Virus record (IMG/VR): IMGVR_UViG_3300042453_005981
Direction: 5' to 3' (one strand)
Source of the DNA: an uncultured virus (IMG/VR IMGVR_UViG_3300042453_005981)
Lineage: Duplodnaviria; Heunggongvirae; Uroviricota; Caudoviricetes
DNA: 56,930 bases
Below the pieces are notes generated by a model, which searched no databases, was not told the origin of the DNA, and worked only from the letters and a program-made list of their open reading frames with translations. Position 1 is the first letter of the stretch. The number at the start of each line of letters is the position of its first letter. The translations under genes and the position numbers were made by a program. Shown here piece by piece: positions 3,368-42,174 of the stretch.

Positions 3368-3369
3368 AT

Positions 3370-4706: not shown

Positions 4707-4726
4707 TTACATATTGTACAATTTAC

Positions 4727-5356
4727 ATGATGAGCGAATTCTACAGTCAATACGGTCAAGACCAATATATTTACGAAACTTTCTTCAAAAACAAAACGGA
4801 CGGAGTATTTGTAGATATAGGAGCTTATGATGGAATAAAACTTTCTAATAGTTACTTTTTTGAAAAACTAGGTTGGACAGGTTTTTGTTTTGAGCCAGTA
4901 GATGACGCTTTTCAAAAATTAATATCGAATAGATCTCACTCTAAATGCTTTAACTGTGCAATTGGACATGAAAATAAAAAAGTACAATTCTTGAAAGTAG
5001 TTGGAAACGCAGATATGCTCAGTGGCGTATTAGATTATTATGATGCAAATCATATGTTTAGAATAAACAAAGAAACTTATGAATCAAATGGAGAACAAAT
5101 TGGAATTGAAGTTGAAATGTTCACGCTTGATCATTTCCTTCCTATAAATTCTCCAATTGATTATTTGTCAATTGATACTGAAGGTGGTGAATCTAAAATA
5201 TTAAAAAATATTTTAGAAAATTTCAATCCAAAAATCATTTCTGTAGAAGTGAATTATGAAGCAGATTCAAAGAAACTTTTTGAAGTTCTTGACAAACAAT
5301 ATGAGGTAGTTAAAAATTTAGGATGCGATCTTATTTTAAAGGATAAAAAATGGTAG
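4727..5356 (+). CDS. FkbM family methyltransferase
   Basis: SQYGQD..FVDIGAYDG..SNS..FEP..IDYLSIDTEGGE. Confidence 0.85.
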   Translation: MMSEFYSQYGQDQYIYETFFKNKTDGVFVDIGAYDGIKLSNSYFFEKLGWTGFCFEPVDDAFQKLISNRSHSKCFNCAIGHENKKVQFLKVVGNADMLSGVLDYYDANHMFRINKETYESNGEQIGIEVEMFTLDHFLPINSPIDYLSIDTEGGESKILKNILENFNPKIISVEVNYEADSKKLFEVLDKQYEVVKNLGCDLILKDKKW

Positions 5357-6156
5357 TTACATATATAGAAGGCGGATTAGGCAACATGTTATTTCAACTT
5401 TGCTTCAGCTATGCTAAGGCAAAAGAAAATAACACGACATTTCATACATTGAATTATAGAGAAAATCTTGATATTATCAAGGATAAACATAAAGCTGATA
5501 TTGAATCTTATGAAAAAACGATTCTCAGAAATTTCAGTATTTCTCCTCCTCCACTGCTGTATCAAGCACAAATTCAACATTTTTGCCCTTTTAATTTTGA
5601 AGAAATTCCTTATGAGCCAGATTGTTACAATTTGTATAAAGGGTATTTTCAATCAGAAAAGTATTTTGAAAAAAGCCAAGAAGATTTAGCACAAATTTTT
5701 CAACCAACCGAAGAAATCATTGACCACATGAAAGAAAAATACCCTTTTCTTTTTACTTTAGATTGTGTGGCTTTGCACATTAGACGAGGAGATTATTTGC
5801 AATTACCAAATCATCATCCAATTGTTCCCACCGATCATTATCATAAAGCATTAAAGAAACTTGGTGATTTTGAAAAAATCTTAGTGTTTACAAATGATAT
5901 GGATTGGTGCTACAAGAATTTTGTAGAATCGCGAGCTATTTTCATTGAAGAGTCAGATTGGATGAGTTTATATCTTATGAGCTTTTGCACTAAGCATGTT
6001 ATTGCTAATTCATCTTTTTCTTGGTGGGGTGCAAAATTAGCTGAGATGTTTTTCCCAGAAAAAAACATCGAAGTAGTTGCTCCTCCAGTGTGGTTTGGAC
6101 CTGCTGTTGATGGCGATGAAAAAGATTTAGTTCCATCAAGATGGATGAAAGTGTAA
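5350..6156 (+). CDS. Alpha-1,2-fucosyltransferase-like glycosyltransferase (GT11)
   Basis: GGLGNMLFQ, GYFQSEKYF, HIRRGDY, IANSSFSWWGA. Confidence 0.9.
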   Translation: MVVTYIEGGLGNMLFQLCFSYAKAKENNTTFHTLNYRENLDIIKDKHKADIESYEKTILRNFSISPPPLLYQAQIQHFCPFNFEEIPYEPDCYNLYKGYFQSEKYFEKSQEDLAQIFQPTEEIIDHMKEKYPFLFTLDCVALHIRRGDYLQLPNHHPIVPTDHYHKALKKLGDFEKILVFTNDMDWCYKNFVESRAIFIEESDWMSLYLMSFCTKHVIANSSFSWWGAKLAEMFFPEKNIEVVAPPVWFGPAVDGDEKDLVPSRWMKV

Positions 6157-6800
6157 TGACTAAATTAGATTTGTTTAATAACACACATGTAATATCTTTA
6201 GCACATAGATTGGATAGAAGAAGTGTCATAGCTAAGCAATTTGAGTTATATCAAATTCCTTATTCTTTTTTTGATGCTATCAATGGACATGAATTAGATT
6301 ATAATGGTCCGTTGTTAAAAGGCGAGGAGGGTGTAAGATTATCACATATTGAGTTATTAAACAAATCAATCAAAAACAATGAAAAATCACTTTTTATTTT
6401 TGAAGATGATGTTGAGTTTTCAGAAAGCTTTAACGAAGATTTACACAGAGCTTTAAATGTAGTTCCTGATAATTTTGATATGTTATATTTGGGGGCTTCA
6501 CATCATCTAAAGCCAGAATTAGTAAAAGATAACTTATATAAAATTTCACATTCTTACACCGCACATGCACTTTGTATAAAAAACAACCTTTTTGCACCAC
6601 TCAGAGACACAATCTCAAACAATAAAAATTTACCAGTGGATGTAATTTATGCATTAGTTCAACCGCAAGTAAATGCATTTGCTATTTATCCACATCTTGC
6701 ATGGCAATTCAACAGTTATTCAGACATACAAAACAAATTTGTTGATTATGAATTCCTTAAAAAAGAATTTGTTAGATTTGAAAATCAAACTATTCTTTGA
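6156..6800 (+). CDS. Glycosyltransferase GT25
   Basis: VISL..RLDRR..FFDAING..LSH..IFEDDV..DMLYLG. Confidence 0.8.
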   Translation: MTKLDLFNNTHVISLAHRLDRRSVIAKQFELYQIPYSFFDAINGHELDYNGPLLKGEEGVRLSHIELLNKSIKNNEKSLFIFEDDVEFSESFNEDLHRALNVVPDNFDMLYLGASHHLKPELVKDNLYKISHSYTAHALCIKNNLFAPLRDTISNNKNLPVDVIYALVQPQVNAFAIYPHLAWQFNSYSDIQNKFVDYEFLKKEFVRFENQTIL

Positions 6801-7420
6801 GCTTCCCAATTATGTTCTCTTGGCGCTAAATTCACAATATATGTTGGAGAGTTCTGCATGAATTGGTATTGACACCCAGCATTTACGGCGTTCACAATAA
6901 ATTCCCAATCATGACCATAATTTCTTGTGTGAGCTGGTAATTTTTTAACCATATCATTACTCACACATAATTCTGAATGCCCTATTTTGCTTGGGGCAAG
7001 CTCTGGAACTCTTAACTCAAGAATTCCATTACCTCTATCTATACTCGTGTTAAAAAGCCCAAAATCTTTTCCGCTTTTAGCAGACATCTCATAGTAAAGC
7101 TCAAAATGATTGTTGAAAATATTATCATCATTACTCAGAAACATAAAAAAATCACCAGTGCAATTTTTCATAGCGTAGTTAATTGCTTGACAAGAAGTGC
7201 CATCATGTGTGTCAAAGTTTTTAACAATCATTCTATCACCAATAATTTTTTTAAAAAACGCAAAATCTTCACTTGCCACAATTTTATCAAAAACAGGGCA
7301 TTTATCTCCTAAGAAAAAAAATTCATAGTCGTCTAAAGTTTGCAAACTTATAGAATTCAATAATCTAAGAGTAAGCATTTCTCTACCCCAACTTGGAAGA
7401 ACTACACTTAATTTTGCCAT
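6785..7420 (-). CDS. Glycosyltransferase GT2-like
   Basis: LSVVLPSWGR..SISLQT..AINYAM..GDFFMFLSNDD..GHDWEF. Confidence 0.75.
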   Translation of the reverse strand: MAKLSVVLPSWGREMLTLRLLNSISLQTLDDYEFFFLGDKCPVFDKIVASEDFAFFKKIIGDRMIVKNFDTHDGTSCQAINYAMKNCTGDFFMFLSNDDNIFNNHFELYYEMSAKSGKDFGLFNTSIDRGNGILELRVPELAPSKIGHSELCVSNDMVKKLPAHTRNYGHDWEFIVNAVNAGCQYQFMQNSPTYIVNLAPREHNWEAQRIV

Positions 7421-7447
7421 TAAATTATTATACTGTAAAATACATTC

Positions 7448-8383
7448 ATGATAAAACGAGAGTTCAAAAAAATTTTAGTTACAGGAGGGGCAGGATTTAT
7501 TGGAAGTTATTTTGTTGATTTGTGCTTAGAAAAAAATATTTTTGTAATTAATTATGACGCATTAAAAACAGGAAGCATGCTTGAACATGGACCTCTTAAA
7601 AAACATCAAAATTATCATTTCATGCCATTTGATGTTTCAAACCCACAATTAATTATTCCAGAAGACATTGAGGCAATTGTTCATTTTGCGGCTGAAACAC
7701 ATGTAGATAGAAGTGTAACAAACCCATTTTCATTTGTTCAATCAAATGTTGTGGGGACATATAATCTTTTGGAAAAATGCAAAGACAAAAACATTTGGTT
7801 TCATTTAGTTTCTACTGATGAAGTGTATGGAGATATATGGGGAACAAAAAGGTCTACAGAAACTGATCCTATTAATTGCTCTTCTCCTTATTCTGCTACT
7901 AAGTCGGCCTCTGAGCAATTAGTTATTGCATATGGGCGCACCTATGGCTTAAAGTACACAATCACAAGAGGTTGCAACACTGTGGGTGGAAGACAGAACA
8001 ACGAGAAATTAATTCCTAAATTTGTGTACAATGCTAAAAACAATTTACCTTTGCCAGTTTATGGCAACGGAGAAGCAATTAGGCAGTACATTCATGTCAC
8101 TGATCATGCAGAAGCAATTTACGCTGTTCTTACTAAAGGAATGCTTAATAACATTTTTAATGTGGGCACAGATGCTAAGTTTTCAATTAATGAAATTGTT
8201 AATATCATAAAAGAATTTTATCCTAATTTAACTATCACAGATAAAGAAAACAGACCTGGGCATGATCTGCGATATTGTATGAATTGTGGGCTCATTCAAG
8301 CCTGGGTAACATGGCAACCAAAAATAAAAGGCAAAGATATTATTCTTAAATCTATTTCAGAATTGTGTAATTCTTACGTATAA
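7448..8383 (+). CDS. rmlB: dTDP-glucose 4,6-dehydratase
   Basis: TGGAGFIGS, HFAAETHVDRS, VSTDEVYG, SPYSATK, RPGHDLRY. Confidence 0.92.
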   Translation: MIKREFKKILVTGGAGFIGSYFVDLCLEKNIFVINYDALKTGSMLEHGPLKKHQNYHFMPFDVSNPQLIIPEDIEAIVHFAAETHVDRSVTNPFSFVQSNVVGTYNLLEKCKDKNIWFHLVSTDEVYGDIWGTKRSTETDPINCSSPYSATKSASEQLVIAYGRTYGLKYTITRGCNTVGGRQNNEKLIPKFVYNAKNNLPLPVYGNGEAIRQYIHVTDHAEAIYAVLTKGMLNNIFNVGTDAKFSINEIVNIIKEFYPNLTITDKENRPGHDLRYCMNCGLIQAWVTWQPKIKGKDIILKSISELCNSYV

Positions 8384-8413
8384 TAAATATATCAATGAAA
8401 AAGGAGAAAAAAG

Positions 8414-15338: not shown

Positions 15339-18164
15339 GTGTGGTATCGGTATTGCAGATTAATTATAGCGAAAAAAGAACATATAATTGCCAAAATTTA
15401 CAATCATTTTAGGGAAGAATATGAAAATTCTCCAAATGATTTATATATTCTTGATGATATAAAAGAAAAATTATTAAAATTAGATGAAATAAATTTTTTT
15501 GATCAAAACATAATTGAATTAAACACTGATAAAAACACTAATAAAAAAACTGTTAATTTTTTAGGAAAAGTTTGTGAAAGTTTAACTGATTTAGCAGAAG
15601 CTGTTGATCCCGTGTACGATGAAGTAATGTACAAAAAAGAATATAAACAAGAAAAGAAAAAACAACAAAGTTTACAAGCTTTAGAGTTTATTGCTGGAGA
15701 AGTTCAAGTATATCCCTGCAATGATGTCAATGATACAATAAGATTTGGAAGGGGTACCACTTGGTGCATTTCTCAACCTGGTACAGGTATTAAAGCTTAT
15801 AACTCATACAGACTTAATCACCAATCTACTTTTTACTATGTGCAAGATGGAACAAGAACAGACAATTTGAAAAGAGTGATGGTAGATATGCAAGCAAACG
15901 GTGTTGTCAAACTCACTGATTTTGGTAACACCACTGGTACAATAGCTGAATTTGGTACAGATTGGCAAGCATATTTTGACTATTTGAAAGAAGAAAAAGA
16001 AGTAGATATTTCTCAATTTGTTAATAAACCATTAACAGAAGAAGAAAAAAAAGAAATCAATACACTTAGTGAAAGAAACACCGATTACGAATGGTTTAAA
16101 AAATTATCATCAGATTATAAATCTAAATATATTGGCATGGGTCATCTTTTGTCTGATGATCAACTAAGATATATTTTGAAAAGTTCTTTGAAAGACATTT
16201 TAATTCGGGAGTACTTGAATACAGGTACCTGTATTACAGAAAGCCAAAAAAATATGTTATTTACAAATAATCAATACAAAAATACTTATGAGTTTAGAAG
16301 AACAAATTATATTAATGAAATAAAAGCACAAGTTACTGAAGATTACAAACTTAAAAATTTAGCACTGGGTTCAAATGATTTCGATTTAATCACAGAACTT
16401 ATAAATGAAGGAAAAATTACAAAAGACCAATTCATGAAAGTTCAGTCTCCTGAAATGTTCTTTTTTTTGATGGATCAAGATTTTGATAAAAAGCGTTTAG
16501 TTGAATCTAATGCAGAACATAATTTTACAATTGACTATTTAAGTTCATTGCCTGCAAACGAGAGCAAAAATCTTTTATCTGGGGTTCTTTTAAGTAATCT
16601 GGCTGCAATTAGAAAACTTTATGCTAATGGTATGATAACTAGCAATAATATAAATTGGTATGCCGTATTTATATGGAATTATGGATTTGAATTTTCAGAT
16701 ATCGAATTGTTTAGTAACTTGTATAAACAAAGTGTTTTTCAGGAAGATATCGATCAAAAATTGAAACAAACTGAAGTTAAAACTCAATATAAAGCAGCTT
16801 TTTACCTTTCCAATAATATTAAAACAGATAAACCAATTGATTTCGCAACTATATTATCTATAGGTATTGATGAAAAGCTTAAAGCTTTTTATTATCAATA
16901 TTTTGATACCTTAACGCCAGATCAAAAAAAATATATTCTTGATAGAGTATCTTTTGGTTATGGAAATAATAATTTCTTAATATCATTGGGTAAAAAAATA
17001 GATTCTCTTGATGAAAAAGATCTATTTAGAGTCATAAACTCAGCTGACGCACAAGCAATGTTTGCTTTATCAAAACAACTTGCAAAAAATGATTTGCAAA
17101 TTTTGATCAACGATGATAAAGCAAGATTCAGTAATCAACTTACCATACAATGGCTTTTAAGTAATAATTTTGATGTGCAAGCCAAGAATATGGATTTTGC
17201 AGCACTTTTTTCTTCTGATCATGAAATAGCAGATTTTGTTTTTGAAAAATTTGAAAACTTAAGTAGTGAGGAACAAAAAAAACTGTTTGGTAGCTTTTAC
17301 GTCCAACCAAAATCTATTAAAGTAGCAAAATATTTATTTGAAAAAGGCGCATCTTATTTCTTAAGGTTTGTTACATTCGACATCATTGATGCAATAATTA
17401 GTTCTATGACTAATCTGCCTTATGAAGCATGGGATAATATTTCAGGTAATGAAAAAATTTATAACAACAACGAATTTATTATGAAGTATATACCAAATTT
17501 AATTGGTAAATTTAGTTTTGCATATAGTGCTCCGTTAAGATTTTTTGACCTTATCTTTGAGAAATTTAACAATTTTGAACGTAATCAAGATTGGATAGTA
17601 AGACAATTTTGTTCTCATAATAAATCTTGCAATGAACAAGTGGCAGAAAAATATATAAAAAAATATCCTAGCTTAAAAGAAGTTATTATTCAAGCTTTTG
17701 TGGATAATTATAGCGGTAAAATTCCTTCAGAAGATTTTATAAATAAATATTACGATGAAATTTCAGAATTTATTGGTTATCTTTATCGCTATAAAAATTT
17801 TACTGAAGATTACATAAGAAAATTTGCTGACAAAATAAAATTTGATAGAGTTCTTATGTCAACAAAAAATTTATCAAATGAATTTTTTGTTGATTTTGAA
17901 GAAAAAATTGCTGAGATTCCTGATCGTGAAATGAATGATATACTAGAAAATACAACGTTACCTGAATATTTTTTGAGTAAATTTGCACATAAATTTAATG
18001 ATTATAATTGGCGCCAAATATCAAGAAAATTTCAATTATCTGAAAATTTTATTATAAAATTTGCAGATAAATTAGATTTTCAATATATTAAATATAATGA
18101 AAATATTCCAGACGTAGTGAAACAAAATTTAAAAGTAAAAGGATATGCAGTTGATATATTATGA
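15339..18164 (+). CDS. Large phage protein (941 aa) with MWY N-terminus and C-terminal LSE.FI.KF.DK.DW-type repeats
   Basis: G.GTTWCISQ..Y..Y..TFYY N-terminal domain; repeats such as FTEDYIRKFADKIKF, LPEYFLSKFAHKF, LSENFIIKFADKLDF. Confidence 0.6.
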   Translation: MWYRYCRLIIAKKEHIIAKIYNHFREEYENSPNDLYILDDIKEKLLKLDEINFFDQNIIELNTDKNTNKKTVNFLGKVCESLTDLAEAVDPVYDEVMYKKEYKQEKKKQQSLQALEFIAGEVQVYPCNDVNDTIRFGRGTTWCISQPGTGIKAYNSYRLNHQSTFYYVQDGTRTDNLKRVMVDMQANGVVKLTDFGNTTGTIAEFGTDWQAYFDYLKEEKEVDISQFVNKPLTEEEKKEINTLSERNTDYEWFKKLSSDYKSKYIGMGHLLSDDQLRYILKSSLKDILIREYLNTGTCITESQKNMLFTNNQYKNTYEFRRTNYINEIKAQVTEDYKLKNLALGSNDFDLITELINEGKITKDQFMKVQSPEMFFFLMDQDFDKKRLVESNAEHNFTIDYLSSLPANESKNLLSGVLLSNLAAIRKLYANGMITSNNINWYAVFIWNYGFEFSDIELFSNLYKQSVFQEDIDQKLKQTEVKTQYKAAFYLSNNIKTDKPIDFATILSIGIDEKLKAFYYQYFDTLTPDQKKYILDRVSFGYGNNNFLISLGKKIDSLDEKDLFRVINSADAQAMFALSKQLAKNDLQILINDDKARFSNQLTIQWLLSNNFDVQAKNMDFAALFSSDHEIADFVFEKFENLSSEEQKKLFGSFYVQPKSIKVAKYLFEKGASYFLRFVTFDIIDAIISSMTNLPYEAWDNISGNEKIYNNNEFIMKYIPNLIGKFSFAYSAPLRFFDLIFEKFNNFERNQDWIVRQFCSHNKSCNEQVAEKYIKKYPSLKEVIIQAFVDNYSGKIPSEDFINKYYDEISEFIGYLYRYKNFTEDYIRKFADKIKFDRVLMSTKNLSNEFFVDFEEKIAEIPDREMNDILENTTLPEYFLSKFAHKFNDYNWRQISRKFQLSENFIIKFADKLDFQYIKYNENIPDVVKQNLKVKGYAVDIL

Positions 18165-18674
18165 GCTCAAAATATGCTTTTTAAATTTATCTAAATCATC
18201 TTTGAAATATAAATTAAATATGGGGATTTTTTTATTCTTAGCTATTCTTAAAGCTTGCCCTGTTCCCCCTTGCCAATTTTCTTCATCATCTACTTCACAA
18301 TAGCAGATAATAAAATCAGATTTTGTTCGGCAATTTTTACCAAGCACTTGATATGTGTTTCTCGCCATTAGTTTTTGTACGCCTTCACTTGTGCCAAATA
18401 AGTTTGGATGAAATTGAAAAGCAATTTCATAAGCTTTTTCACATTGTGCGTAGAGGTCAGAATTATTTCCATTGAAACCTTTCCAGGGGAGATAAATTTC
18501 TTTGAGCCCACAGGCTTTATCACAGCCTTTTTCAAATGCTTTATCAGCTCCATCAGCCCCTCCTGATCTTAAAACATAACCTTTTTTAGCTAAAACAGCG
18601 CCAAGTTTTTCCATTATAACAAGAACGTTTTCTGGTGTTGATCTTGACCCTATTCCTGCATAATATTTTTCCAT
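18159..18674 (-). CDS. SLOG/DprA-like Rossmann-fold phage protein
   Basis: YAGIGSRSTP, LRSGGADGADKAFE, ARN, GGTGQALRIA. Confidence 0.75.
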   Translation of the reverse strand: MEKYYAGIGSRSTPENVLVIMEKLGAVLAKKGYVLRSGGADGADKAFEKGCDKACGLKEIYLPWKGFNGNNSDLYAQCEKAYEIAFQFHPNLFGTSEGVQKLMARNTYQVLGKNCRTKSDFIICYCEVDDEENWQGGTGQALRIAKNKKIPIFNLYFKDDLDKFKKHILSS

Positions 18675-18761
18675 TAATTTATATACGAAAAAAGAATTGT
18701 CATTTTTTATTAGAAATAGAAACTATACGATAAATTTATCGTCTAAAAAATAAGGTCAAAA

Positions 18762-19331
18762 ATGAAAAAAAAAATTTTTAAAATAATCTTTACTGTTGTA
18801 ACCGTTTTTATGCTGGCATCAATTTCTTTTGCACAATTCGATGGAGCTGATAAAAAACTCACTGTGGAATACAAAAATTCAGATGTGAGAGAAGTGGTGA
18901 TTTCAATTCTGAAATCCGTAAATTTGAGCTACACTCTTTTTCCAGAAGTACAAGGACAAGTGACTGTATCAGTAAAGGACGTGCCTCTTTTAACAGTATT
19001 AGAGAACATTCTTCAGCAAGTGGACTGTACATGGTCTTATGCAGGTGGAGTTGTTGTTATCAAAAAAAGAGAATTACCTCCTACCGAACCACAATCTCAA
19101 GAAATTACTTCAACACAATCTGGAAAACCTGCAAAAGTAATCAGAAAACTTATCATTCGCAGTAGTGACCCTTTGCTTATTGCTATGCTGTTAAGTGGAA
19201 GCCAAAATTATTTTGGTTCACCTGAGCCAACACAATCTTCATATTCTTTTGGTGGCTTTGGAAACAATATGATGGGTGGTTTTGGTGGATTTAGTGGGCA
19301 GGGCGGTTTTGGAGGAAATAACCTTAGATAA
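18762..19331 (+). CDS. Secreted secretin N-terminal (STN-like) domain protein lacking the secretin barrel
   Basis: Signal peptide ending SFA-Q; EYKNSDVREVV..VQGQVTVSVKDVPLLTVLENILQQ pattern; Gly-rich tail. Confidence 0.65.
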   Translation: MKKKIFKIIFTVVTVFMLASISFAQFDGADKKLTVEYKNSDVREVVISILKSVNLSYTLFPEVQGQVTVSVKDVPLLTVLENILQQVDCTWSYAGGVVVIKKRELPPTEPQSQEITSTQSGKPAKVIRKLIIRSSDPLLIAMLLSGSQNYFGSPEPTQSSYSFGGFGNNMMGGFGGFSGQGGFGGNNLR

Positions 19332-19333
19332 AA

Positions 19334-19358
19334 AAGGCTTCCATTATGGAAGCCTTTC
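19334..19358. terminator. Bidirectional intrinsic terminator
   Basis: AAAGGCTTCCA-TTA-TGGAAGCCTTT hairpin between convergent genes. Confidence 0.8.
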
Positions 19359-19361
19359 AAA

Positions 19362-19661
19362 TTAGTTGTTTAGATTAGCTATCTCTTCAGCTTGCTCTAA
19401 TGTATAAGAATCAACTAAGCCAAGTGCTGGTTGTTCCAGAGCTTCTGTCGCAGCTTTAACTTTTTCAAGTTCTGACAATATATTACTTAAGTGTTTTTCC
19501 ACTTCTGTAAGTTTTGTCTCAGACCATGTGCCAGCTCTTCCCATTAAAAAGTTCAAATTCATGAATTGTACTTTGTTGTGGAATTTGTTGACAATAATAT
19601 CTATCTTGTAAACGTGCAAAAGCACTTCTTTTAATTTTTCGACTTTTAATTTTTCGTCCAT
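19362..19661 (-). CDS. Hypothetical protein
   Basis: Start MDEKLK chosen from the upstream TGTATAAAATAAAC-ATG leaderless motif. Confidence 0.55.
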   Translation of the reverse strand: MDEKLKVEKLKEVLLHVYKIDIIVNKFHNKVQFMNLNFLMGRAGTWSETKLTEVEKHLSNILSELEKVKAATEALEQPALGLVDSYTLEQAEEIANLNN

Positions 19662-19752: not shown

Positions 19753-20784
19753 ATGCTAAAATCTAAAGCTTTCACTTTAATAGAGCTTTTGGTGGTAATT
19801 GCCATCATAGCCATTCTCGCCGCAATTCTGTTCCCTGTTTTCGCTCAAGCAAAATTAGCCGCTAAAAAAGCGTCTGATTTAAGCAATGTTAAACAAATGG
19901 GTCTTGGTATTACTTTATATACAGGTGACAATGATGATATGTATCCTTCTGCTTACTATCACAGAGCTTTTAATCCTGCTCTTGGTGGAACCAACGCTGG
20001 ATATATTCACTGGTCAGGCATGGTGATGCCTTATGTTAAAAACGTACAAATGTTTGTATCACCTGGTGATACCATTCGTGGTCATGCTCCAACATGTTTC
20101 TCTTCAGCTGATAACAATAGTGGCGCAGGTGCTCCAGGCGGACAGGCAGCAAACGTATGTACAGCTAACCCTGCAATTGTTCCACCTCAATTTGTACGAG
20201 GTGGTGCGATTGTGGATGAGCAAGTTCCCCGCATTTCTTACACTGTTAATTCTTTGGTAATTCCTAGATACCGAAATATTGGTGATGTCAATAGAGGCAT
20301 TTCTTTGGTGAGCCAAACTCAGTTGGATAATGTTTCAAACATCATCTTGCTTGCTGGATTTACAAGAAATCTTCCCTGTCTTTCATCAGCTTCTATCACT
20401 TCAACGACTAGAAGTGCATCGCACCGATCAACCAATGCAGTCACAAGAGACTCAGCAAATACTCAGGTTTATTTTGGTAGTCAAGAAGACGGGGCTTCAC
20501 GACCTTCTAGTTTGTTTGCTCTGAATTGGAACAATCTTGCTTCTAGTAATATTTTCAATTTATGTGCAACAAATCCACGAACAGATTACCCTCTCATTGT
20601 GTATCATGGTTATAACAATTGGAATAACTCTGGTGATAATTATGGCATGGCAGATGGTTCTGCTAAATATCGACCATTCAGACAAACAATTGCTCCAACA
20701 AACTATCTTTGGGGGACAAGAGCGTATACTGATGGCAATCTTCCTATCTTAGATCCAGTGTCTGGCTTGCCAGTGCAAGGTTAA
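19753..20784 (+). CDS. Prepilin-type N-terminal cleavage/methylation domain protein (DUF1559-like)
   Basis: AFTLIELLVVIAIIAILAAILFPVFAQAK..DLSNVKQMGLG..Y..D.DD..P and C-terminal NYGMADGSAK. Confidence 0.9.
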   Translation: MLKSKAFTLIELLVVIAIIAILAAILFPVFAQAKLAAKKASDLSNVKQMGLGITLYTGDNDDMYPSAYYHRAFNPALGGTNAGYIHWSGMVMPYVKNVQMFVSPGDTIRGHAPTCFSSADNNSGAGAPGGQAANVCTANPAIVPPQFVRGGAIVDEQVPRISYTVNSLVIPRYRNIGDVNRGISLVSQTQLDNVSNIILLAGFTRNLPCLSSASITSTTRSASHRSTNAVTRDSANTQVYFGSQEDGASRPSSLFALNWNNLASSNIFNLCATNPRTDYPLIVYHGYNNWNNSGDNYGMADGSAKYRPFRQTIAPTNYLWGTRAYTDGNLPILDPVSGLPVQG

Positions 20785-24624: not shown

Positions 24625-25461
24625 ATGGACATTAACGAACAACTTTTTGAAATTAAAAAGCCCTATCTTAAAACTATCAATTGTCTCGACAAAGGTTTTG
24701 TCAGATTGGTGGATTGGATGGGTTCTGATCAAAGAATTGTTCAATCAGCTCGCGTGTCCTATGGCGATGGAACAAAAACTGTTCGTGAAGATAAAGGGTT
24801 AATTGATTATCTTATGCGACACGCACACACTTCGCCTTTTGAGCAAGTGAATTTCACTTTCCATGCTAAGATGCCAATCTTTGTGGCAAGGCAGATTGTC
24901 AGACACAGGACTGCCAAGTTAAATGAGATTTCAGGAAGATATTCAATACTCAAGGACGAGTTTTATGAGCCCGATGTTTCTAGAATGGTAAAACAATCTA
25001 AAGACAACAAACAGGGCTCTTCTCAAGAATTACTTGAAGATGCTGAAAGCTTTCTGCAATCATTTAAGGATGAGCAATTTGAAATGTATGATAATTATGA
25101 AGAATACATTCAAGGTGGAATGGCAAAAGAAATGGCTCGTATAAATCTTCCTTTGTCAATTTATACAGAGTGGTATTGGACTATTGATTTACACAATCTG
25201 TTTCATTTCTTAAAACTTAGAATGGATTCTCACGCTCAATATGAAGTGAGAGTGTATGCAGACGCTAAATACAACCTGATAAAAGATATTGTGCCATTTG
25301 CTTGCGAATCATTTGAGCAACATGTGATCAATGGCAAAAAGTTTTCAAAAGATGAATTAGACATAATGAAAGAATTGATTCAGCACGAAGACATTAAAAG
25401 GTTAGCTGATCAAAGAAATTGGAAAGAATCTAAGGTAAATGAATTCCTTAAAAAGATATAA
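24625..25461 (+). CDS. thyX: Flavin-dependent thymidylate synthase
   Basis: SARVSY, HTSPFEQ, PIFVARQIVRHRTAKLNEISGRY, LRMDSHAQYEVR. Confidence 0.95.
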   Translation: MDINEQLFEIKKPYLKTINCLDKGFVRLVDWMGSDQRIVQSARVSYGDGTKTVREDKGLIDYLMRHAHTSPFEQVNFTFHAKMPIFVARQIVRHRTAKLNEISGRYSILKDEFYEPDVSRMVKQSKDNKQGSSQELLEDAESFLQSFKDEQFEMYDNYEEYIQGGMAKEMARINLPLSIYTEWYWTIDLHNLFHFLKLRMDSHAQYEVRVYADAKYNLIKDIVPFACESFEQHVINGKKFSKDELDIMKELIQHEDIKRLADQRNWKESKVNEFLKKI

Positions 25462-26299
25462 AATAATTTTTTTAGTTCCTATATTTGAAAGAGAAGATTG
25501 TGTGGAAGATCTTATTCAAAATATACACACAATCTGCCCTAATTCTGCAATTCTTTTTCACATAAATAGCAATTGCTCGCAAACATTTGTAGACAATATA
25601 AACAAGCTTAAAAACCATTATGATTTTTGTTACATTTTGCCCGAAAAATATCCATCTGAATGGGCTTCTGGTTTTTTAACAAACATTTACATACAAATGA
25701 TGAATTGGTGTATTGAAAATGACATTTCAGATTATATTTACATTACTCATTCTAATTCATTATTAATAAACCCAAAATTAGAATCATTCATTTATTCACA
25801 TGAAATATTTTTTCCCTTACCTGGAACTAAACATTCTGGAGATTGGTGGGAGAAAATATTATTAGATCAAAATATATTAGATTATGTGAAACCTTTAGGC
25901 GACATAATATATGTAACATCTATTGAAGGTGCTGCTATGAATTTGAAAGTGGCTCAACATTTTGTTGATGATTTAATTAAAGTTATTCCTAATATTAATG
26001 TAGAGTATCCTTCGGAGGAATATTATATACCCACGTCATTTATGAAAATCAAAGATAGATACAGATACATGAATTGTGCTTTGGAAAGGTGGGGGCATAC
26101 AGTTGACCATGTTGTAAATGGATATAAGCTTGGAGTGAGTAAAAATGAGGAATACATTTTAAATATAGTTTTAAACAATCAATTTGATGTTTTATCTAAA
26201 TTAAATCTTTATTCAATTAAAAAAATAGAAAGAAAATATAATTACCCTTTTAGAGAGCTTTTAAGGAATCATTTTGGTTATAACAACGTAATATTTTAA
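25439..26299 (+). CDS. Hypothetical protein, possible glycosyltransferase
   Basis: IIFLVPI..ILFHIN..EG..YPSEEYY loosely resembles GT14-like proteins. Confidence 0.4.
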   Translation: MNSLKRYKIIFLVPIFEREDCVEDLIQNIHTICPNSAILFHINSNCSQTFVDNINKLKNHYDFCYILPEKYPSEWASGFLTNIYIQMMNWCIENDISDYIYITHSNSLLINPKLESFIYSHEIFFPLPGTKHSGDWWEKILLDQNILDYVKPLGDIIYVTSIEGAAMNLKVAQHFVDDLIKVIPNINVEYPSEEYYIPTSFMKIKDRYRYMNCALERWGHTVDHVVNGYKLGVSKNEEYILNIVLNNQFDVLSKLNLYSIKKIERKYNYPFRELLRNHFGYNNVIF

Positions 26300-26304
26300 G
26301 GCGC

Positions 26305-27237
26305 ATGATATATCATCAAATTACATCACAAAACCCACTTGAAATTTATTTAAATTTAGAAGAGCTATTATGCTTAAAAAACATCACAAACACTGAATGT
26401 TTCATACAACCAAATGATGTGGCTAAAAAATATTTTGATTTTTCACATTTCCAAGTAGTCACTGAATTAAAAAAAGATGCTCTTACAATGGACATTGCAG
26501 ATTATGTCTGTATGTACAATTTTGATTTTATTGACATTGAAGGCTCTGAGTTTTTAGAATACAAAAGAAACCAAGAAAAAAAATATCTGCGATTAGATAA
26601 ATTTGAATTGAATGATTTTCATGTAAGGTTTTCAAAACCTAATTATTACGAAACAAAATATTTTCATTCGAATAAGAATATATATAGGAATGCGATTAAA
26701 CAATCTTCTATTTTTTTGTTCAATAAAAAATTTCAAGAAGAGTATGATTTTTTGAAACAAATTACTCCAAAGCTTCCATTGTTATGCCTCAAAGAATCAG
26801 AAGTGAATAGTATACCAAAATTACCAATCACAGATTGTGTTCATGTAGCTGATAAATACAACTATGATTTTGGAAAAATTCTTAAAGAGTCTCAAGGAAT
26901 TAATTCTCTCAATTTACATGATTACATTCGTGATTATCATTCTTCATTAAAAAACGTGGACATCAATATGTTACTTTTAATCATCAGTGAGAATTTTAAG
27001 GACATTTATGGTTACACTCAAGATTATGTTTTTGGCGCATTATGTAAGCAAATGTTTTTAAAAGATAAAGATTTTAAAGTTAATTTGCTTAATGTTCCAG
27101 ATTGTGGTTTATTGGAAAACTTTAACTTTAGAATTGTAGATTCCAGCGCATGTTTTTCTTTTTCAAAAATGAAATTGAATTGTCACAGATCTGATTTAAT
27201 GTCACTTATCCGATTCAATGAGTGTGTTATTGATTAA
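26305..27237 (+). CDS. Hypothetical protein
   Basis: 310-aa ORF with no recognised motif. Confidence 0.55.
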   Translation: MIYHQITSQNPLEIYLNLEELLCLKNITNTECFIQPNDVAKKYFDFSHFQVVTELKKDALTMDIADYVCMYNFDFIDIEGSEFLEYKRNQEKKYLRLDKFELNDFHVRFSKPNYYETKYFHSNKNIYRNAIKQSSIFLFNKKFQEEYDFLKQITPKLPLLCLKESEVNSIPKLPITDCVHVADKYNYDFGKILKESQGINSLNLHDYIRDYHSSLKNVDINMLLLIISENFKDIYGYTQDYVFGALCKQMFLKDKDFKVNLLNVPDCGLLENFNFRIVDSSACFSFSKMKLNCHRSDLMSLIRFNECVID

Positions 27238-36923: not shown

Positions 36924-37499
36924 ATGCTAATACCTTACGTTATTGAAAAAACTGGCGAGAACGAACGCTCGTATGATTTATTTTCCAGATTGCTGAAAGA
37001 TAGAATTATTATGCTTGGAAGTGGAGTGAATGAGCAAACTGCTAATGTTATCATTGCTCAAATGCTCTTTCTTGAAAAGGAAGATCCAAAAGCTGACATT
37101 CATTTTTACATAAACTCACCAGGTGGCTCAGTGTATGATGGACTTGCAATTTATGATGTCATGCAGTTTGTATCTTGCCCTGTTGCTACCACTTGTTTTG
37201 GAGTTGCGGCGTCTATGGGAGCTGTACTCTTAGCTGGTGGAGAAAAAGGCAAAAGAAGAATTTTACCTAATTCTCGTGTGATGATTCATCAAGTTTCATC
37301 AGGATTTAGAGGCACTACCGCAGATATCAATGTCCAAGCGAAAGAAACTAATTTTCTCATGGATAAACTTATGCAAATACTTTCTGGTCATACTGGAAAA
37401 ACTACCGAGCAAGTAAGAATAGATTGCGACCGTGATTATTGGATGAGTGCTGAAGAAGCTCTTGAGTATGGTATTATAGACGAGATTATAAAGAAATGA
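36924..37499 (+). CDS. clpP: ATP-dependent Clp protease proteolytic subunit
   Basis: [28 protein letters not shown] (Ser), RVMIHQ (His), [11 protein letters not shown]. Confidence 0.96.
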
Positions 37500-37573
37500 A
37501 AAAAGCAATAATTTTTGATTTAAATCTTTGATAAAATAAAGGATTATTGCTATAATGTCAGAAAATATGAAGA

Positions 37574-38695
37574 ATGAAAGAAATTTTTTCAAAAATATCT
37601 GAACAAATAATGCATTCGCCAAATTTAAAACATTTAATTTTAGCCATTGGATTGAAATATAATACTTCAAATTACATTAAAGTTTCAAATTATATTAAAA
37701 ACAATAATATTAATGATAGTCATTTCCCTCACCCAAAAGATAAATTAAAATATATTTCGAATGAAGTGTTTATAGAAGCATATCACAAATCAAAATCTCT
37801 TGGTGAACTTTTGTCTCAACTTGGATTAAATCACTCTTACTATAAAAAATTGCATAAAAAAATTTTTGATTTGAAATTAGATGTTTCAAAATTTCAATTT
37901 GTTAAATGGTCTGAAGCTGAAATTGAGTGTCTCAAAGAAAATTATCCTACTAAAACAGAAGATGAATTAAAAATTTTATTTCCTAACAGAACAATTGAAG
38001 GACTACAAAGATATGCTTGTTATTATAAAATTAAAAAAACAAAAAATAATGTTTCTTCTAATTTACGTATTCTTTTAAATAATAATTTAGAATCTTTATA
38101 TTGGATAGGTTTTATTATGGCTGATGGTACAATTGATTTAAAACGTGGCAGGTTGAAAATTTCTGTTGACAAAAAAGATGCAGAACATTTATTCAAGTTT
38201 AAATCCTATATTGAATGCGAAAATTCTGTGAAAAATTATTGTCAATCAAAAAACGCTTTTGGCATTAGTGATTTAAGTGAAATTTCTTTATACAATAAAA
38301 ATGTTATTGAGAAAATCTCTGACAAATTTAATCTTAAACCAAAAAAAACATATAATCCTCCTGATTGTAAAATTTTTGAACAATTCGAAATTAATCAAAT
38401 TTTGTCTTTGATTATAGGCTACATAGATGGAGATGGATGTATTTATAAAAATAAAAATGGAAACATTGACATTAAAATAGTTAGTCACGAAAGTTGGATT
38501 TTTGTTTTTGAGTTTTGGCAAAAATGTATTGAAAAAAAATTCAAAACAAAAATTCCTTTTGCGAAAATAAATAGTTCAAAATTGTCACAAATAAATTTTA
38601 GCAAAAAACAAATTATTTTTGAATTAAAAAAGTTTGTTGAAGAAAATAATTTACCTGTACTCGAAAGAAAATGGAATAAAATTTCGTATAGTTAA
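37574..38695 (+). CDS. Free-standing double-motif LAGLIDADG homing endonuclease
   Basis: YWIGFIMADG and LIIGYIDGDG motifs, KKTY, C-terminal LERKW. Confidence 0.85.
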   Translation: MKEIFSKISEQIMHSPNLKHLILAIGLKYNTSNYIKVSNYIKNNNINDSHFPHPKDKLKYISNEVFIEAYHKSKSLGELLSQLGLNHSYYKKLHKKIFDLKLDVSKFQFVKWSEAEIECLKENYPTKTEDELKILFPNRTIEGLQRYACYYKIKKTKNNVSSNLRILLNNNLESLYWIGFIMADGTIDLKRGRLKISVDKKDAEHLFKFKSYIECENSVKNYCQSKNAFGISDLSEISLYNKNVIEKISDKFNLKPKKTYNPPDCKIFEQFEINQILSLIIGYIDGDGCIYKNKNGNIDIKIVSHESWIFVFEFWQKCIEKKFKTKIPFAKINSSKLSQINFSKKQIIFELKKFVEENNLPVLERKWNKISYS

Positions 38696-38697
38696 AT

Positions 38698-39219
38698 ATG
38701 AAAAATAATTTAAAAGCAATAGTTATGGACCTGGATGGAGTGGTTGTAAATAGCTCATCAAGGTTTAAAAGATTGAATCTTGATGCCTTTATTCGCAGAG
38801 ATGCAAAAGCTTGGATAAAATCAGTGGAATGGTACAATGCTGATTGCAGAGGCGATGAAGTGATTGATTTGGGTGTTGATTTACTTGAAATGCTATGCAC
38901 ATTTTACAAACCAGATTGTGTGTTTTTTATCACAGCTAGAGGGCATGGCGGATATAAACCCACTTTGCAATGGCTTAAAGATGAAGGGATTTGGAAAGAA
39001 GATTGTGTTTTGATTATGCAACCAGAAGATTTTGATAATTACCACTTCTACACACAATCTGACCATGCTTCATATAAGAAAAAAGAAGCTCTGAAAATTA
39101 TGGAAAATTATGAGATTGTGTATGCTGTGGACGATAGCGAAGACAATGTTCAGGCATACAGAGATTTAAAAATTCCCACGCTGAAGTTTTGTGTGCCTAT
39201 CGGAAGAGTGCTGGTTTAA
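38698..39219 (+). CDS. HAD phosphatase, polynucleotide kinase 3'-phosphatase-like
   Basis: MDLDGVV, FITAR..T..WL, YKK, AVDD. Confidence 0.75.
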   Translation: MKNNLKAIVMDLDGVVVNSSSRFKRLNLDAFIRRDAKAWIKSVEWYNADCRGDEVIDLGVDLLEMLCTFYKPDCVFFITARGHGGYKPTLQWLKDEGIWKEDCVLIMQPEDFDNYHFYTQSDHASYKKKEALKIMENYEIVYAVDDSEDNVQAYRDLKIPTLKFCVPIGRVLV

Positions 39220-39239
39220 TTTTTAATTTGGGTGAATGG

Positions 39240-39584
39240 ATGAGAAGAAAGATTAAAGATAGTGTGATTGAAAATTTAGAATGCGTTTGCCATTGTTTTT
39301 TAGCGCTATCTATGCTGATTAGTTTCTTCATTTCAATATTTTCTCTCCCTTCTTTTTTGCTAAGAGATATAGGACCTTTTACAAGAGACGTAGGAATAAT
39401 TGCATTTATATGGTTCTTGATATCGCTTATATGTTTTAAAGTTAATGATACAAAAGGCTTCTTAAAATTTTTGCATAAAAGAAATGACAAAATAGATGAA
39501 GAAGAAAAAGCTAGACAGCAGGCTCTGCTTCTAGAAGCCGAAGAAAGAAACAGGGCTGAACTTCAGATTTGGGTGAATGGATGA
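39240..39584 (+). CDS. QIWV-family membrane protein 1
   Basis: Two TM segments, charged helix, ends QIWVNG; start after the TTTGGGTGAATGG junction. Confidence 0.7.
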   Translation: MRRKIKDSVIENLECVCHCFLALSMLISFFISIFSLPSFLLRDIGPFTRDVGIIAFIWFLISLICFKVNDTKGFLKFLHKRNDKIDEEEKARQQALLLEAEERNRAELQIWVNG

Positions 39585-39904
39585 GAAGAAAGATTAAAGA
39601 TAGTGTGATTGATACTTTAGCAACCGTTTTGTTTTGCTTTCTTTTTCTATCTTGTCCGATTAGCTTTGTCATCTTTCTATGGTATGCCTCTGGGGACGTT
39701 TCTCCGTACATAACAGGAATTGCATTTATATATTTCTTGATATCGCTTATAGGTAGTGCATTTTATAATATAGATGGCTCACTAAACTTTTTGCGTAAAC
39801 GAAATGGCAAAATTGATGAAGAAGAAAAAGCTCAACTTCAAGCTAAAGCTCAAGCTGAAGCAGAAAGAACTAGAATTGAATCTCAGATTTGGGTGAGCGA
39901 ATGA
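39581..39904 (+). CDS. QIWV-family membrane protein 2
   Basis: Two TM segments, ends QIWVSE; ATGA overlap. Confidence 0.7.
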   Translation: MRRKIKDSVIDTLATVLFCFLFLSCPISFVIFLWYASGDVSPYITGIAFIYFLISLIGSAFYNIDGSLNFLRKRNGKIDEEEKAQLQAKAQAEAERTRIESQIWVSE

Positions 39905-40227
39905 AAAGAAAGTTAACTGAAAAGACAGAAGCTGCTTTAATTCTCTTTCTTTTTATTTTCCTTTTGCTATCTATTTTGATTAGCTTTTGCATCTCTGTAC
40001 GTTGGTTCTTTTGGTGCAATAACTGGAACGTAGCACTAATTGCATTTATATGGTTCTTGATATCGTACAAATGTTTTGTAGGTTTTATATGGAACGATGG
40101 CATCTCAGACTTTTTGCATTCAAGAAATGACAAAATAGATGAAGAAGAAAAAGCTAGACAGCAGGCTCTGCTTCTGGAAGCTGAAGAAAGAAACAGGGCT
40201 GAACTTCAGATTTGGGTGAATGAATGA
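39901..40227 (+). CDS. QIWV-family membrane protein 3
   Basis: Two TM segments, ends QIWVNE; ATGA overlap. Confidence 0.7.
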   Translation: MKRKLTEKTEAALILFLFIFLLLSILISFCISVRWFFWCNNWNVALIAFIWFLISYKCFVGFIWNDGISDFLHSRNDKIDEEEKARQQALLLEAEERNRAELQIWVNE

Positions 40228-40535
40228 AAGACGGAAAGTATACAAAAGAAGATAAAAGATATATGGAAAGTATGTGGATTGACTTTGGTGTTATACTTGT
40301 GTTTGCTATTCCATGCTGTTCTAATATACCTGGATTAGAAAATTATGGGATTATTACAGGAATAATTCCTATCGTACTTTTTTTTGGTGTGATATTTTTA
40401 ATTCGAAAGTATGTGCGCACACACAATCAAAAGATAGATAAAGAATTTCAAGCTGAACAGGAGAAAAAGGAAGCTGAACTTCAAGCTAAAGCAGACAAAG
40501 AAAAAGCTAATTCTCAGATTTGGGTGATCGAATGA
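40224..40535 (+). CDS. QIWV-family membrane protein 4
   Basis: Two TM segments, ends QIWVIE; ATGA overlap. Confidence 0.7.
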   Translation: MKDGKYTKEDKRYMESMWIDFGVILVFAIPCCSNIPGLENYGIITGIIPIVLFFGVIFLIRKYVRTHNQKIDKEFQAEQEKKEAELQAKADKEKANSQIWVIE

Positions 40536-40924
40536 ATGAAACTATTTGCTATATTTTTGTACCTATTTCTTTTTCTTTATTTTTTATTATTTTAGTAGGT
40601 TTTCTAAATCACTTTTCATTAATGGAAAACATTGAAGAAGAAGAAAAGAAAAAAACAATTAAAATGAGAGCAGAGGAAGAGAGAAAAAGACTTGAAATAG
40701 AAGCCGAAAAACTAAACTTGCACAACAAGCAATTAAAGCTTCACCTAAAGATTTTGTTGAGCCAGTTCATGGAAAAAAGAATTAAAATAGAAGGAGAGAA
40801 AGCTCAACAGAAAGCTCGCCAGATTGCTCAACTTCAAGAAGAACAACAAAGTCTTAGAATAAAGGCAGAAGAAGCTGAAGCAGAAAGAACTAGAACACAA
40901 TCTCAGATTTGGGTGAATGAATGA
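40532..40924 (+). CDS. QIWV-family membrane protein 5
   Basis: One TM segment, long coiled coil, ends QIWVNE. Confidence 0.7.
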   Translation: MNETICYIFVPISFSLFFIILVGFLNHFSLMENIEEEEKKKTIKMRAEEERKRLEIEAEKLNLHNKQLKLHLKILLSQFMEKRIKIEGEKAQQKARQIAQLQEEQQSLRIKAEEAEAERTRTQSQIWVNE

Positions 40925-41157
40925 TTTCGGAATTGTATTCTGTATTTTCGGAGATGGACTTCTTTTCTAAGTTTTGCTTTTGTTTTGCTCTCTTTATGCT
41001 TGCATTACTCGTGTGGTGTTTCTTTATAACATTTATTCGAGAAGAAGCAGAAGAAGCAGAAGAGAGAAAAAGACTTGAAAAACAGGCAGAAGAAGAAAAA
41101 CTTAAAATTGAAGCCGAAGAAAGAATAAGAGCTAATTCTCAAATATGGGTGATTTGA
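40921..41157 (+). CDS. QIWV-family membrane protein 6
   Basis: One TM segment, ends QIWVI. Confidence 0.7.
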   Translation: MISELYSVFSEMDFFSKFCFCFALFMLALLVWCFFITFIREEAEEAEERKRLEKQAEEEKLKIEAEERIRANSQIWVI

Positions 41158-41199
41158 TTATGCAATTTTTCAATTTCAAGCGTATAAATAGGTGAGCAT

Positions 41200-42174
41200 A
41201 TGTTGAACAAAAATTTTTCAAACGAAGAGCTTCTTGAGCTTAGACGAAAGCACAAAGAAAAACTTGCACTTCAGGAGCAAGAAACCCAGGAATTGCAAAG
41301 AAGAAAAATAGAAGCAGAAAAAAAAGAAGAAGCTGACCGATTGACATTAACAATTAACAAACTCGTTAATTCATTATTTATTGAGTTTAACAAATCCTTT
41401 CAAAGATTTATCCTTACTGAGGATAAAAAATTTGCAATTCAAGTGGATAGTTCACATGCTGTTTCAACTCTGCTTCCTGGTAGTGAAAAATATAGCAATG
41501 TACCTTTTTTGATGCATGAAGCACTAGTTCGAAAAATCAACGATACTTACCCAAAGCTCAAATTTTTGAGCTACGTACAACAAAACGCAAATAATACCTA
41601 CTTTTCAATAGTTTTCGAGCCAATATTGCATAACATTATTCCCTGTGACATAATCTCAGAAACTCTGCCGAGATGGAAATCTATAAAGACTCTGCCACAA
41701 TCTGGAAGTGTGTATGTATGTTACACTAATGTAACTGGCGAAATAAGTATTCATAAATTTGAAGGAATTGATTTAAGTTCTTTAATCAAAAAGCCAGATT
41801 TGCTTCCCACTTTTTGGTTAGAAAAATTACCCAGTTTTAAGGCAAACATTTTAAGTGCTATAAACATAGTTGGTATGTTGTCATTATTATCAAATATTCC
41901 TTTGGTTGTAATTTCAAAGAATTTATTCATCGGGCTTGCTCTTGGCGCTATTGAAAGTATTGCAATGTTTGTTGCCAATCAAGTGCTCAAAAGCGACAGT
42001 ATTGAGTCACAATATTCAGAAGATTTATCAAACTACCTTAAAAGTAATGAATATCTGGCTAATAAAGAGATTGTGTCTTGGTATGATGAATTACCAAAAG
42101 ATTTTGTAGTAGATGAAAAAACAACCAAACAAAAAGCCTTAGCTGAGTTTGATAACATCGCAAACACAATCTAA
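41200..42174 (+). CDS. Hypothetical membrane protein
   Basis: N-terminal coiled coil, two TM segments near the C-terminus. Confidence 0.6.
   Translation: MLNKNFSNEELLELRRKHKEKLALQEQETQELQRRKIEAEKKEEADRLTLTINKLVNSLFIEFNKSFQRFILTEDKKFAIQVDSSHAVSTLLPGSEKYSNVPFLMHEALVRKINDTYPKLKFLSYVQQNANNTYFSIVFEPILHNIIPCDIISETLPRWKSIKTLPQSGSVYVCYTNVTGEISIHKFEGIDLSSLIKKPDLLPTFWLEKLPSFKANILSAINIVGMLSLLSNIPLVVISKNLFIGLALGAIESIAMFVANQVLKSDSIESQYSEDLSNYLKSNEYLANKEIVSWYDELPKDFVVDEKTTKQKALAEFDNIANTI

Follow-up and report, generated by a model that had tools for sequence, protein, structure and literature searches.

The window considered here, meaning the whole stretch of 56,930 bases that was analysed, is the final part of a 118,930-base contig from an uncultured virus of the Caudoviricetes (IMG/VR record IMGVR_UViG_3300042453_005981), and it contains an array of six consecutive small genes whose products share the C-terminal motif QIWV. 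The corresponding phage record is a jumbo phage genome of 347,392 bases, rated 99% complete in IMG/VR, and two of its loci are exact substrings of the window. The array appears to be a real, undescribed and clade-restricted cassette system, for which the evidence of shuffling is strong and that for a functional shared peptide is moderate.

The six-gene QIWV array

A preliminary description, made from the window alone, had recognised six neighbouring genes that each encode one or two variable transmembrane (TM) helices followed by a constant tail, and this outline holds. The proteins end, in gene order 1–6, in QIWVNG, QIWVSE, QIWVNE, QIWVIE, QIWVNE and QIWVI; hydropathy places two TM segments in genes 1–4 and one in genes 5 and 6. 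All five internal junctions read CAGATTTGGGTGA-xxGx-ATGA with a 4-nt overlap of stop and start codons, and a non-coding copy of the junction sequence, ATTTGGGTGAATGGATG, begins upstream at 39226. Only the six array genes contain QIWV among the 540 non-overlapping open reading frames (ORFs) of the phage record, where a tail profile also matches at these six places only. The junction pattern occurs 8 times at up to two mismatches versus 1.53 expected, a number reached in 0 of 100 shuffles. The genes are mosaics: genes 1 and 2 have their first 32 nt in common, genes 1 and 3 are identical at 96 of the last 100 nt before QIWV, genes 1–3 share a AATTGCATTTATAT block, and genes 2 and 5 share 24 nt. 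The charged stalk between head and tail, first described as a coiled coil, could instead be a charged single helix.

An assembly artefact seems unlikely, because sequence pieces from three runs without a source flag cover 30 of the 30 bins of the region, and because individual contigs bridge the junctions. Contigs from runs X12 and X20 cross the gene 2/gene 3 junction, and one X12 contig connects gene 4, by way of genes 5 and 6, with the gene that follows. The pieces from non-source runs break at the repeats, and none of those listed spans the whole array. A contig from run X16 that joins gene 1 to gene 3, skipping 643 nt via a 54-nt exact repeat, may reflect a deletion or a collapsed repeat and was not used.

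The window genes match no known family, nor had the first description recognised one. Neither Pfam at its cut-offs nor PADLOC matched any of the six (0/6 in both cases), NCBIfam gave 0 matches for gene 1, the sole gene scanned, and PHROG returned weak and scattered matches for at most 2 of 46 members. The coordinates of the array and its surroundings are collected in Table 1.

Table 1. Features of the array region (window coordinates)
Feature	Position	Strand	Remarks
clpP	36924..37499	+	Pfam CLP_protease, E 5e-75; first gene of likely operon; leaderless start just after TATAAT box
LAGLIDADG homing endonuclease	37574..38695	+	Pfam LAGLIDADG_3; inserted at HAD gene start
HAD / PNKP-type phosphatase	38698..39219	+	Fixed 5' flank of array
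Non-coding leader copy of junction, TTTTTAATTTGGGTGAATGG	39220..39239	+	Shine-Dalgarno sequence kept, Gln codon lost
Cassette 1	39240..39584	+	114 aa, two TM helices, charged stalk, tail RNRAELQIWVNG
Cassette 2	39581..39904	+	107 aa, two TM helices, tail RTRIESQIWVSE
Cassette 3	39901..40227	+	108 aa, two TM helices, tail near-identical to cassette 1
Cassette 4	40224..40535	+	103 aa, two TM helices, tail KEKANSQIWVIE
Cassette 5	40532..40924	+	130 aa, one N-terminal TM helix, ~100-aa charged stalk, tail RTRTQSQIWVNE
Cassette 6	40921..41157	+	78 aa, one TM helix, tail RIRANSQIWVI, synonymous CAA and ATA codons
Junction core CAGATTTGGGTGA	39564..39576; also 39884, 40207, 40515, 40904; variant 41140	+	QIWV codons, Shine-Dalgarno sequence, crossover zone
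Trailer	41158..41199	+	TATAAA box 41183-41188; AGGTGA Shine-Dalgarno sequence for next gene; fixed 3' boundary
324-aa clade-restricted protein	41200..42174	+	N-terminal charged helix, two TM helices near C-terminus; fixed 3' flank

Cassette exchange and variable heads in related loci

A profile of the six genes recovered 61 clusters at 90% identity (24 at 50%), and a tail profile recovered 75 longer proteins. The 110 distinct proteins are all family-like and 107 match the tail pattern; of the other three, two end in QIWANE and one has no tail. One QIGV ending is listed apart, and Q-I-W is intact in all but two family proteins. A search with the junction pattern returned 117 metagenome stretches, from which 116 loci were read. 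Twenty passed the ORF filter and 19 were left once L063 had been dropped as a GC-rich false positive; the other 96 loci have no tailed ORF. Both flanks are visible in 11 of the 19 loci, which together with the window form a bracketed set of 12 arrays. Each lies between the HAD gene upstream (preceded by clpP where the contig reaches that far) and the gene for the 324-aa protein downstream, and holds 2–9 genes. The tail is present in all 47 genes, which follow one another at spacings of -4 to +14 nt.

Array copy number and order are not fixed in these relatives, as all 12 bracketed arrays differ in content and order. A single lake population may be the origin of several contigs (2.4 kb of L032 recur at 98% identity in L034), and the arrays do not represent 12 independent lineages. 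Locus L016 contains window cassettes 1, 6 and 4 in this order, and L035 consists of the first three cassettes of L032 followed by the trailer. Cassette 5 has 348 nt in common, at 98.9% identity, with an L032/L034 cassette of different N-terminus. The second cassettes of L032 and L035 have identical heads and stalks and differ in the last 11 codons, to which the differences between window gene 1 and L016 gene 1, again with the same head, are also confined. In L036 and L079, a stretch of 99.8% identity begins 1 nt before the junction core. For most BLAST blocks shared between arrays, the start or the end is no more than about 32 nt away from a junction (49–88 nt in the exceptional cases); because the junctions are conserved everywhere, this shows the exchange of whole cassettes rather than a cut site. 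The leaders of L036 and L067 resemble a fusion, at TCAGATTT, between the leader and the tail of the L013 type. The proposal of a recombining, translationally coupled gene accordion with variable heads on a constant tail is thus borne out by the differences among the 12 arrays, by exchange near the junctions and by the genuine ribosome-binding sites described below.

The simplest mechanism would be ordinary homologous (RecA/UvsX) or microhomology recombination. The phage record encodes RecA/UvsX; the tyrosine recombinase profile PF00589 found nothing in it (0/1; control found in 14 of 14 genomes), nor was a resolvase found in this 99%-complete record. The reverse transcriptase profile PF00078 also gave 0/1 in this record, which has no cassette of the leucine-rich repeat (LRR) type; its control was found in only 3 of 14 genomes.

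The heads are of three kinds, namely hairpins of two helices, anchors made of one N-terminal helix, and soluble LRR domains. The view of the family as membrane proteins is therefore correct for the window genes and does not extend to the relatives, among which 16 full-length cassettes encode soluble LRR proteins. Because of these cassettes, a purely membrane role such as superinfection exclusion or receptor masking, as first suggested, cannot cover the family. The LRR proteins have 111–311 aa and a variable number of 23-aa repeats (Pfam LRR_1/LRR_8/LRR_14). A 311-aa member in L036 scores above the curated cut-offs (LRR_14, 58.6 versus 40 bits; LRR_1, 52.4 versus 20.6), and the LRR profile score of a 173-aa LRR-type member lies below the cut-off. 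Across 68 unique LRR repeats, the five concave-strand positions have an entropy of 2.0–3.4 bits, and 16 of the 18 other positions are below 1 bit; the nonsynonymous and synonymous polymorphism values (pN/pS) are 0.50/0.51 at concave positions versus 0.07/0.32 in the framework. LRR cassettes are absent from this phage genome. They occur in 9 of the 12 bracketed arrays and are mixed with TM genes in 8 of those 9; L013 is LRR-only, and the window, L016 and L079 are TM-only. When TM cassettes were compared in 20 pairs that are not independent, the pN/pS ratio was 1.03 for the heads, 0.71 for the stalks and 0.45 for the last 11 codons; it lies at 0.21–0.36 in the flanking clpP, HAD and 324-aa genes. 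The head value of about 1 is compatible with diversifying or relaxed selection.

According to the positive-inside rule, basic residues flank TM helices on the cytoplasmic side. In 112 distinct rows from 168 sequences, the N-terminal flank contains a median of 4 Lys and Arg residues in two-helix members (61 rows) and of 0 in one-helix members (40 rows, including a few under-called two-helix proteins). Since the flank is basic in the former and not in the latter, the tail is predicted to be cytoplasmic in both. The LRR members, which have no signal sequence, would be cytoplasmic as well. A stalk of 30–101 aa is kept in every TM member counted.

The system has a narrow distribution. Gene 1 found nothing beyond the clade among INPHARED phages, and IMG/VR searches with the junction pattern, a gene alignment, the 324-aa gene and HAD returned only the same phage record; an LRR member had no match in IMG/VR. 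The tail profile found nothing among PDB sequences and matched 0 of 4 fimbriimonad genomes. The huge-phage record LR756500 gave weak LRR-like matches and was discarded, as the 30 kb that were read showed no such array. A literature search, which left out subscription papers and supplements, found no description of such an array: the accessible portions of PMC7824862 mention phage ClpP, ClpS and ClpX and no array of this kind, and those of PMC7162821 have no mention of LRR, ClpP or Armatimonad.

The flanks of the array are more constant than its content. The clpP gene lies upstream in all 6 loci with enough sequence, the window included. In relatives that lack the homing endonuclease (L016, L032, L035, L043 and L050), clpP overlaps HAD by ATGA. 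The endonuclease is present in L013, L036 and L067, and its insertion in the window (37496-38698) leaves a dead 11-residue stub at 37496-37531 and supplies a new N-terminus for HAD. On the other side, the TATAAA box of the trailer may act as a promoter, although a sigma-70 scan did not list it. The 324-aa protein has 32 homologs (50–100% identical) with the same narrow range as the array, no family match, including in ESM Atlas, and nothing beyond the clade in an alignment search against GTDB genomes; a comparison of its N-terminus with the tail gave a probability of 23% and is compositional. The phage also encodes a ClpX-like ATPase (G000 18070-19509, L164), whose profile match (E 4.6e-74) does not reach the curated cut-off and which has an N-terminal Cys/His finger as well as a VGF loop; DnaK- and GroEL-like genes are present too.

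As to the origin of the phage, all 22 runs that hold half or more of the sampled words come from lake water (11 were flagged as possible sources), and the listed runs holding such words include no RNA dataset. The host probably belongs to the Armatimonadota (Fimbriimonadaceae), because a prepilin-type protein at window positions 19753-20784 has 92% identity with a Fimbriimonadales genome; among its 19 matches, 15 carry titles of Armatimonadota lineages. Elsewhere in the window (1-8400 and 25400-27200), glycosyltransferase-, methyltransferase- and sugar-pathway-like ORFs form a cluster, as judged by eye from translations.

Protein and DNA constraint on the shared tail

The tail of the family has the form [ED]xx[RK]xx[SL]QIWV, and all 47 genes of the bracketed arrays have its [ED]xx[RK]xxSQIWV version. 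Among 154 family proteins, position -7 is acidic in all and position -4 is basic in 148; Q and I occur in all 154, W in 153 and V in 151. Sixteen six-residue tail variants are common to more than one head class. In 44 unique DNA tails, the QIWV codons contain synonymous changes only (CAA 8 times and ATA 6 times, in 12 contexts), whereas 30 of the 36 possible single changes are non-synonymous. By contrast, among the 11 copies in non-coding leaders, a Q, I or W codon is missing from 8, and GGTGA is retained in 10. The coding copies have TGG and never TAG, although TAG would pair better with the anti-Shine-Dalgarno sequence and does occur in non-coding leaders.

The GGTGA of the junction had been proposed to serve as a Shine-Dalgarno (SD) sequence, and GGGTGA indeed base-pairs with the anti-SD of fimbriimonads, at an energy of -8.3 kcal/mol or lower; this match accounts for the Val in the tail. 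The anti-SD was taken from fimbriimonad 16S genes (read from L166), and its CACCTCC core is identical in three genomes. Junction SD energies range from -8.3 to -13.2 kcal/mol, and 36 of 319 ORFs reach -8. The idea of a boundary defined at the nucleotide level is thus correct in so far as the DNA is homogenised at silent sites, but it is incomplete, as Gln-Ile-Trp behave as if constrained in the protein. The tail seems to be constrained as both DNA and protein, and the protein-level case is moderate because the counts are biased by the search and involve only two synonymous alleles. Two narrower readings were rejected: a strict C-terminal PDZ or Tsp-type ligand, as the terminal residues vary, and a palindromic site AATCT-C-AGATT, as only 2 of the 6 window junctions have the palindrome.

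A second accordion of the same phage lies outside the window, at about 14.5–33.2 kb of G001 (L128, L129). It comprises 69 gene starts that match a MINTD pattern, encoding peptides of about 45–75 aa that start with MINTDCV, contain QVW-type repeats and end in KVFR or VWYD. These genes are coupled by an AGGTG SD with ATGA overlap, and a DUF6745 gene (E 3.6e-28) lies in their midst. Pfam gave no match for the two peptides that were scanned, and the pattern occurs in IMG/VR only in this phage record. A TATAAT-like box stands just upstream of ATG in 152 of 355 ORFs of the phage record, which suggests widespread leaderless translation; SD use is concentrated in the coupled arrays.

The preliminary description had also related the junction to the repeat at 55–56 kb of the window. 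The difference of one insertion and one mismatch is literally correct, and an identity of the two is unsupported. The repeat core, a strict 10-mer CAGATTGTGT, has 220 copies in the phage record versus 2.2 expected, and single changes are rare at its positions 1–5 and 7. The QIWV junction has TCAGATT in common with the 10-mer and lacks the nearly invariant GTGT half, so that it was rejected as a copy; the junction 9-mer AGATTTGGG occurs 9 times versus 335 for AGATTGTGT, and the leaders and CAA/ATA tails break the 7–8 nt common to both. A common origin is possible.

The 10-mer itself occurs on both strands and in all frames (window examples at 38912, 55053, 55682, 56057 and 56405), with 35 copies in 82 kb of array loci including the window, 0 in 449 kb of unrelated loci and 0–2 per host-like genome. 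It stands near the start of 15 of the 16 LRR cassettes and also occurs in MINTDCV genes; outside the MINTD array, 26 of 147 copies are placed 2 nt before a TATAA box, and at 34–68 kb of G001 it often forms an inverted pair within repeated leaderless promoter cassettes. The 10-mer has the appearance of an operator or stoperator. At about 68.4 kb of G001 (L131), related 14-nt repeats stand in tandem in non-coding DNA beside GC-rich runs and are a possible origin or terminus.

Possible functions of the array and comparison with known systems

The reading favoured here, which seems to have about an even chance of being correct, is that variable binder heads are joined by a charged stalk to a constant docking motif whose DNA doubles as a recombination handle. 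The diversifying locus would encode adaptor-like proteins, in which a two-helix hairpin, a single reverse signal anchor or an LRR solenoid is linked by a charged helical stalk of about 30–100 aa to the constant cytoplasmic tail. The DNA of the tail may play a triple role, as peptide, as ribosome-binding site for the next gene and as recombination handle, and an inserted cassette would thereby be immediately in frame, tagged and expressed. The heads might bind variable proteins of the host or of rival phages, while the tail recruits one common factor. Candidates for this factor include the phage ClpP, encoded in what is likely the same operon, and the ClpX-like ATPase; the HAD enzyme, the 324-aa neighbour, other members of the family or a protein of the host are further candidates. 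Such a design would offer a compact route to a phage binder repertoire, with some 30 nt that mediate recombination, bind the ribosome and encode a constant peptide tag, and that join unrelated heads, hypervariable LRRs included. Should the tag dock a single effector, the phage would possess an adaptor system that can be programmed, and the heads would reveal the host proteins that are attacked; if the tag is only a DNA by-product, the array still represents a clear case of cassette shuffling through coding ends.

The latter possibility is the chief alternative, tentative and somewhat unlikely as it appears: the tail would be a DNA module (ribosome-binding site, overlap and homology patch), the heads would act alone in exclusion or anti-defence, and QIWV would be a by-product of recombination. 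Several observations favour it and weigh against a docking function. The silent sites of the tail are frozen (Ser TCT 38/38, Val GTG 44/44, Gln CAG 36/44 versus 14% genome-wide), more uniform than codon usage predicts, and the tail end has therefore been homogenised as DNA; four-fold-site differences in the flanking gene reach up to 0.5, on few sites. Recombinational homogenisation alone could explain much of the protein conservation. Complete junction copies are present in the non-coding leaders of L036, L067 and L079, the junction SD is of a strength that 36 of 319 ORFs reach, and GGGTGA fixes two bases of the Trp codon and the whole Val codon. The argument from Gln and Ile relies on two distinct synonymous alleles, which may have spread by conversion. 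The conservation counts are inflated by tail-weighted profiles and by loci found through the junction pattern; this bias spares only those members of bracketed arrays that did not serve as seeds. The MINTDCV array has the same logic of SD plus ATGA, and its SD-derived conserved C-terminus indicates that such tails can arise without docking. Moreover, a head pN/pS of about 1 fits relaxed selection equally well, the pairs not being independent, the ClpX-like gene lies about 80 kb from clpP, and operon position is weak evidence of partnership. On the other side, it speaks against a pure DNA module that E/D and R/K exchange conservatively at positions -7 and -4, that the stalk is retained in every TM member counted, that TAG is never seen in coding copies and that the tail stays inside across the switch in topology.

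A more specific and rather unlikely version of the adaptor reading is analogous to an F-box repertoire, in which shuffled membrane and LRR heads would select receptors or defence proteins of the host, and the phage ClpXP would receive these by way of the SQIWV tail, the tail DNA being a plug-in site where new heads are tagged, expressed and recombined. Self-assembly is a further, decidedly doubtful candidate: stalk and tail would bring different members together in mixed oligomers, with anchoring by the TM type and binding by the LRR type, so that combinatorial complexes would arise at the inner membrane. Coupled translation would yield near-equal amounts, the stalk is charged and helix-like, and LRR and TM genes are usually mixed, but stalk lengths vary threefold, no clear hydrophobic heptad is visible by eye, and arrays of a single type exist. 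Least probable is a sorting or turnover tag, which could be a degron recognised by a host protease or by the phage ClpXP, or else a signal for loading into virions, as in the T4 internal proteins. It would suit this reading that unrelated cargo carries a short tag and that the locus is polymorphic and lies downstream of clpP, but C-terminal degrons are strict at the very end, whereas one or two variable residues follow the motif in almost all members, and most members are membrane proteins and thus poor capsid cargo.

Among known systems, the PeSL cassettes of the T4-type phages RB49 and phi1 are comparable in several respects. These are reported to be intergenic units of a sigma-70-like promoter plus stem-loop that flank ORFans; their short repeats end in an SD and a start codon, recombination between them deletes, inserts and shuffles genes without a dedicated recombinase, and mini-circles form during infection (PMC2839356). 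The array junctions resemble them in that the 3' end of each repeat supplies an SD and a start codon, and in the gain, loss and shuffling of genes between repeats without a dedicated recombinase. They differ in that the array repeat is a coding 3' end which gives each cassette the same peptide, whereas PeSL adds no protein sequence. Neither a terminator-like site nor promoter-like matches above chance level were found in the array. Repeated promoter cassettes at about 34–68 kb of G001, in which a hairpin-like CCCCTCCAAAGGGGAG, a paired motif, TATAAT and ATG precede small genes, are the phage's real PeSL-like elements.

The array differs from integrons in that no tyrosine integrase was found in the phage record; the overlapping genes leave no intergenic room for attC sites between cassettes, for which no attC model was run. 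It also differs from diversity-generating retroelements, since the phage record yielded no reverse transcriptase by a profile whose control was found in only 3 of 14 genomes. The internal protein locus of T4 and other T-even phages is polymorphic and encodes small, unrelated cargo with a short N-terminal capsid-targeting sequence. The array resembles it in its polymorphism, its small unrelated cargo and its common short tag, but the motif is C-terminal, the N-termini are class-specific and the cargo consists mostly of membrane proteins and LRRs. Variable recognition is combined with a constant docking module in F-box and poxvirus ankyrin-F-box proteins and in SspB-type adaptors of ClpX; SspB docks through a short hydrophobic C-terminal strand. 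The array proteins have the same combination of variable and constant modules, but their genes are shuffled as phage cassettes, and the likeness is one of design rather than of demonstrated sequence relation. Finally, the LRR members share with variable LRR repertoires a fixed framework, hypervariable concave positions and a variable number of repeats, but here the LRR is one of three head classes, and its tail is common to the membrane proteins.

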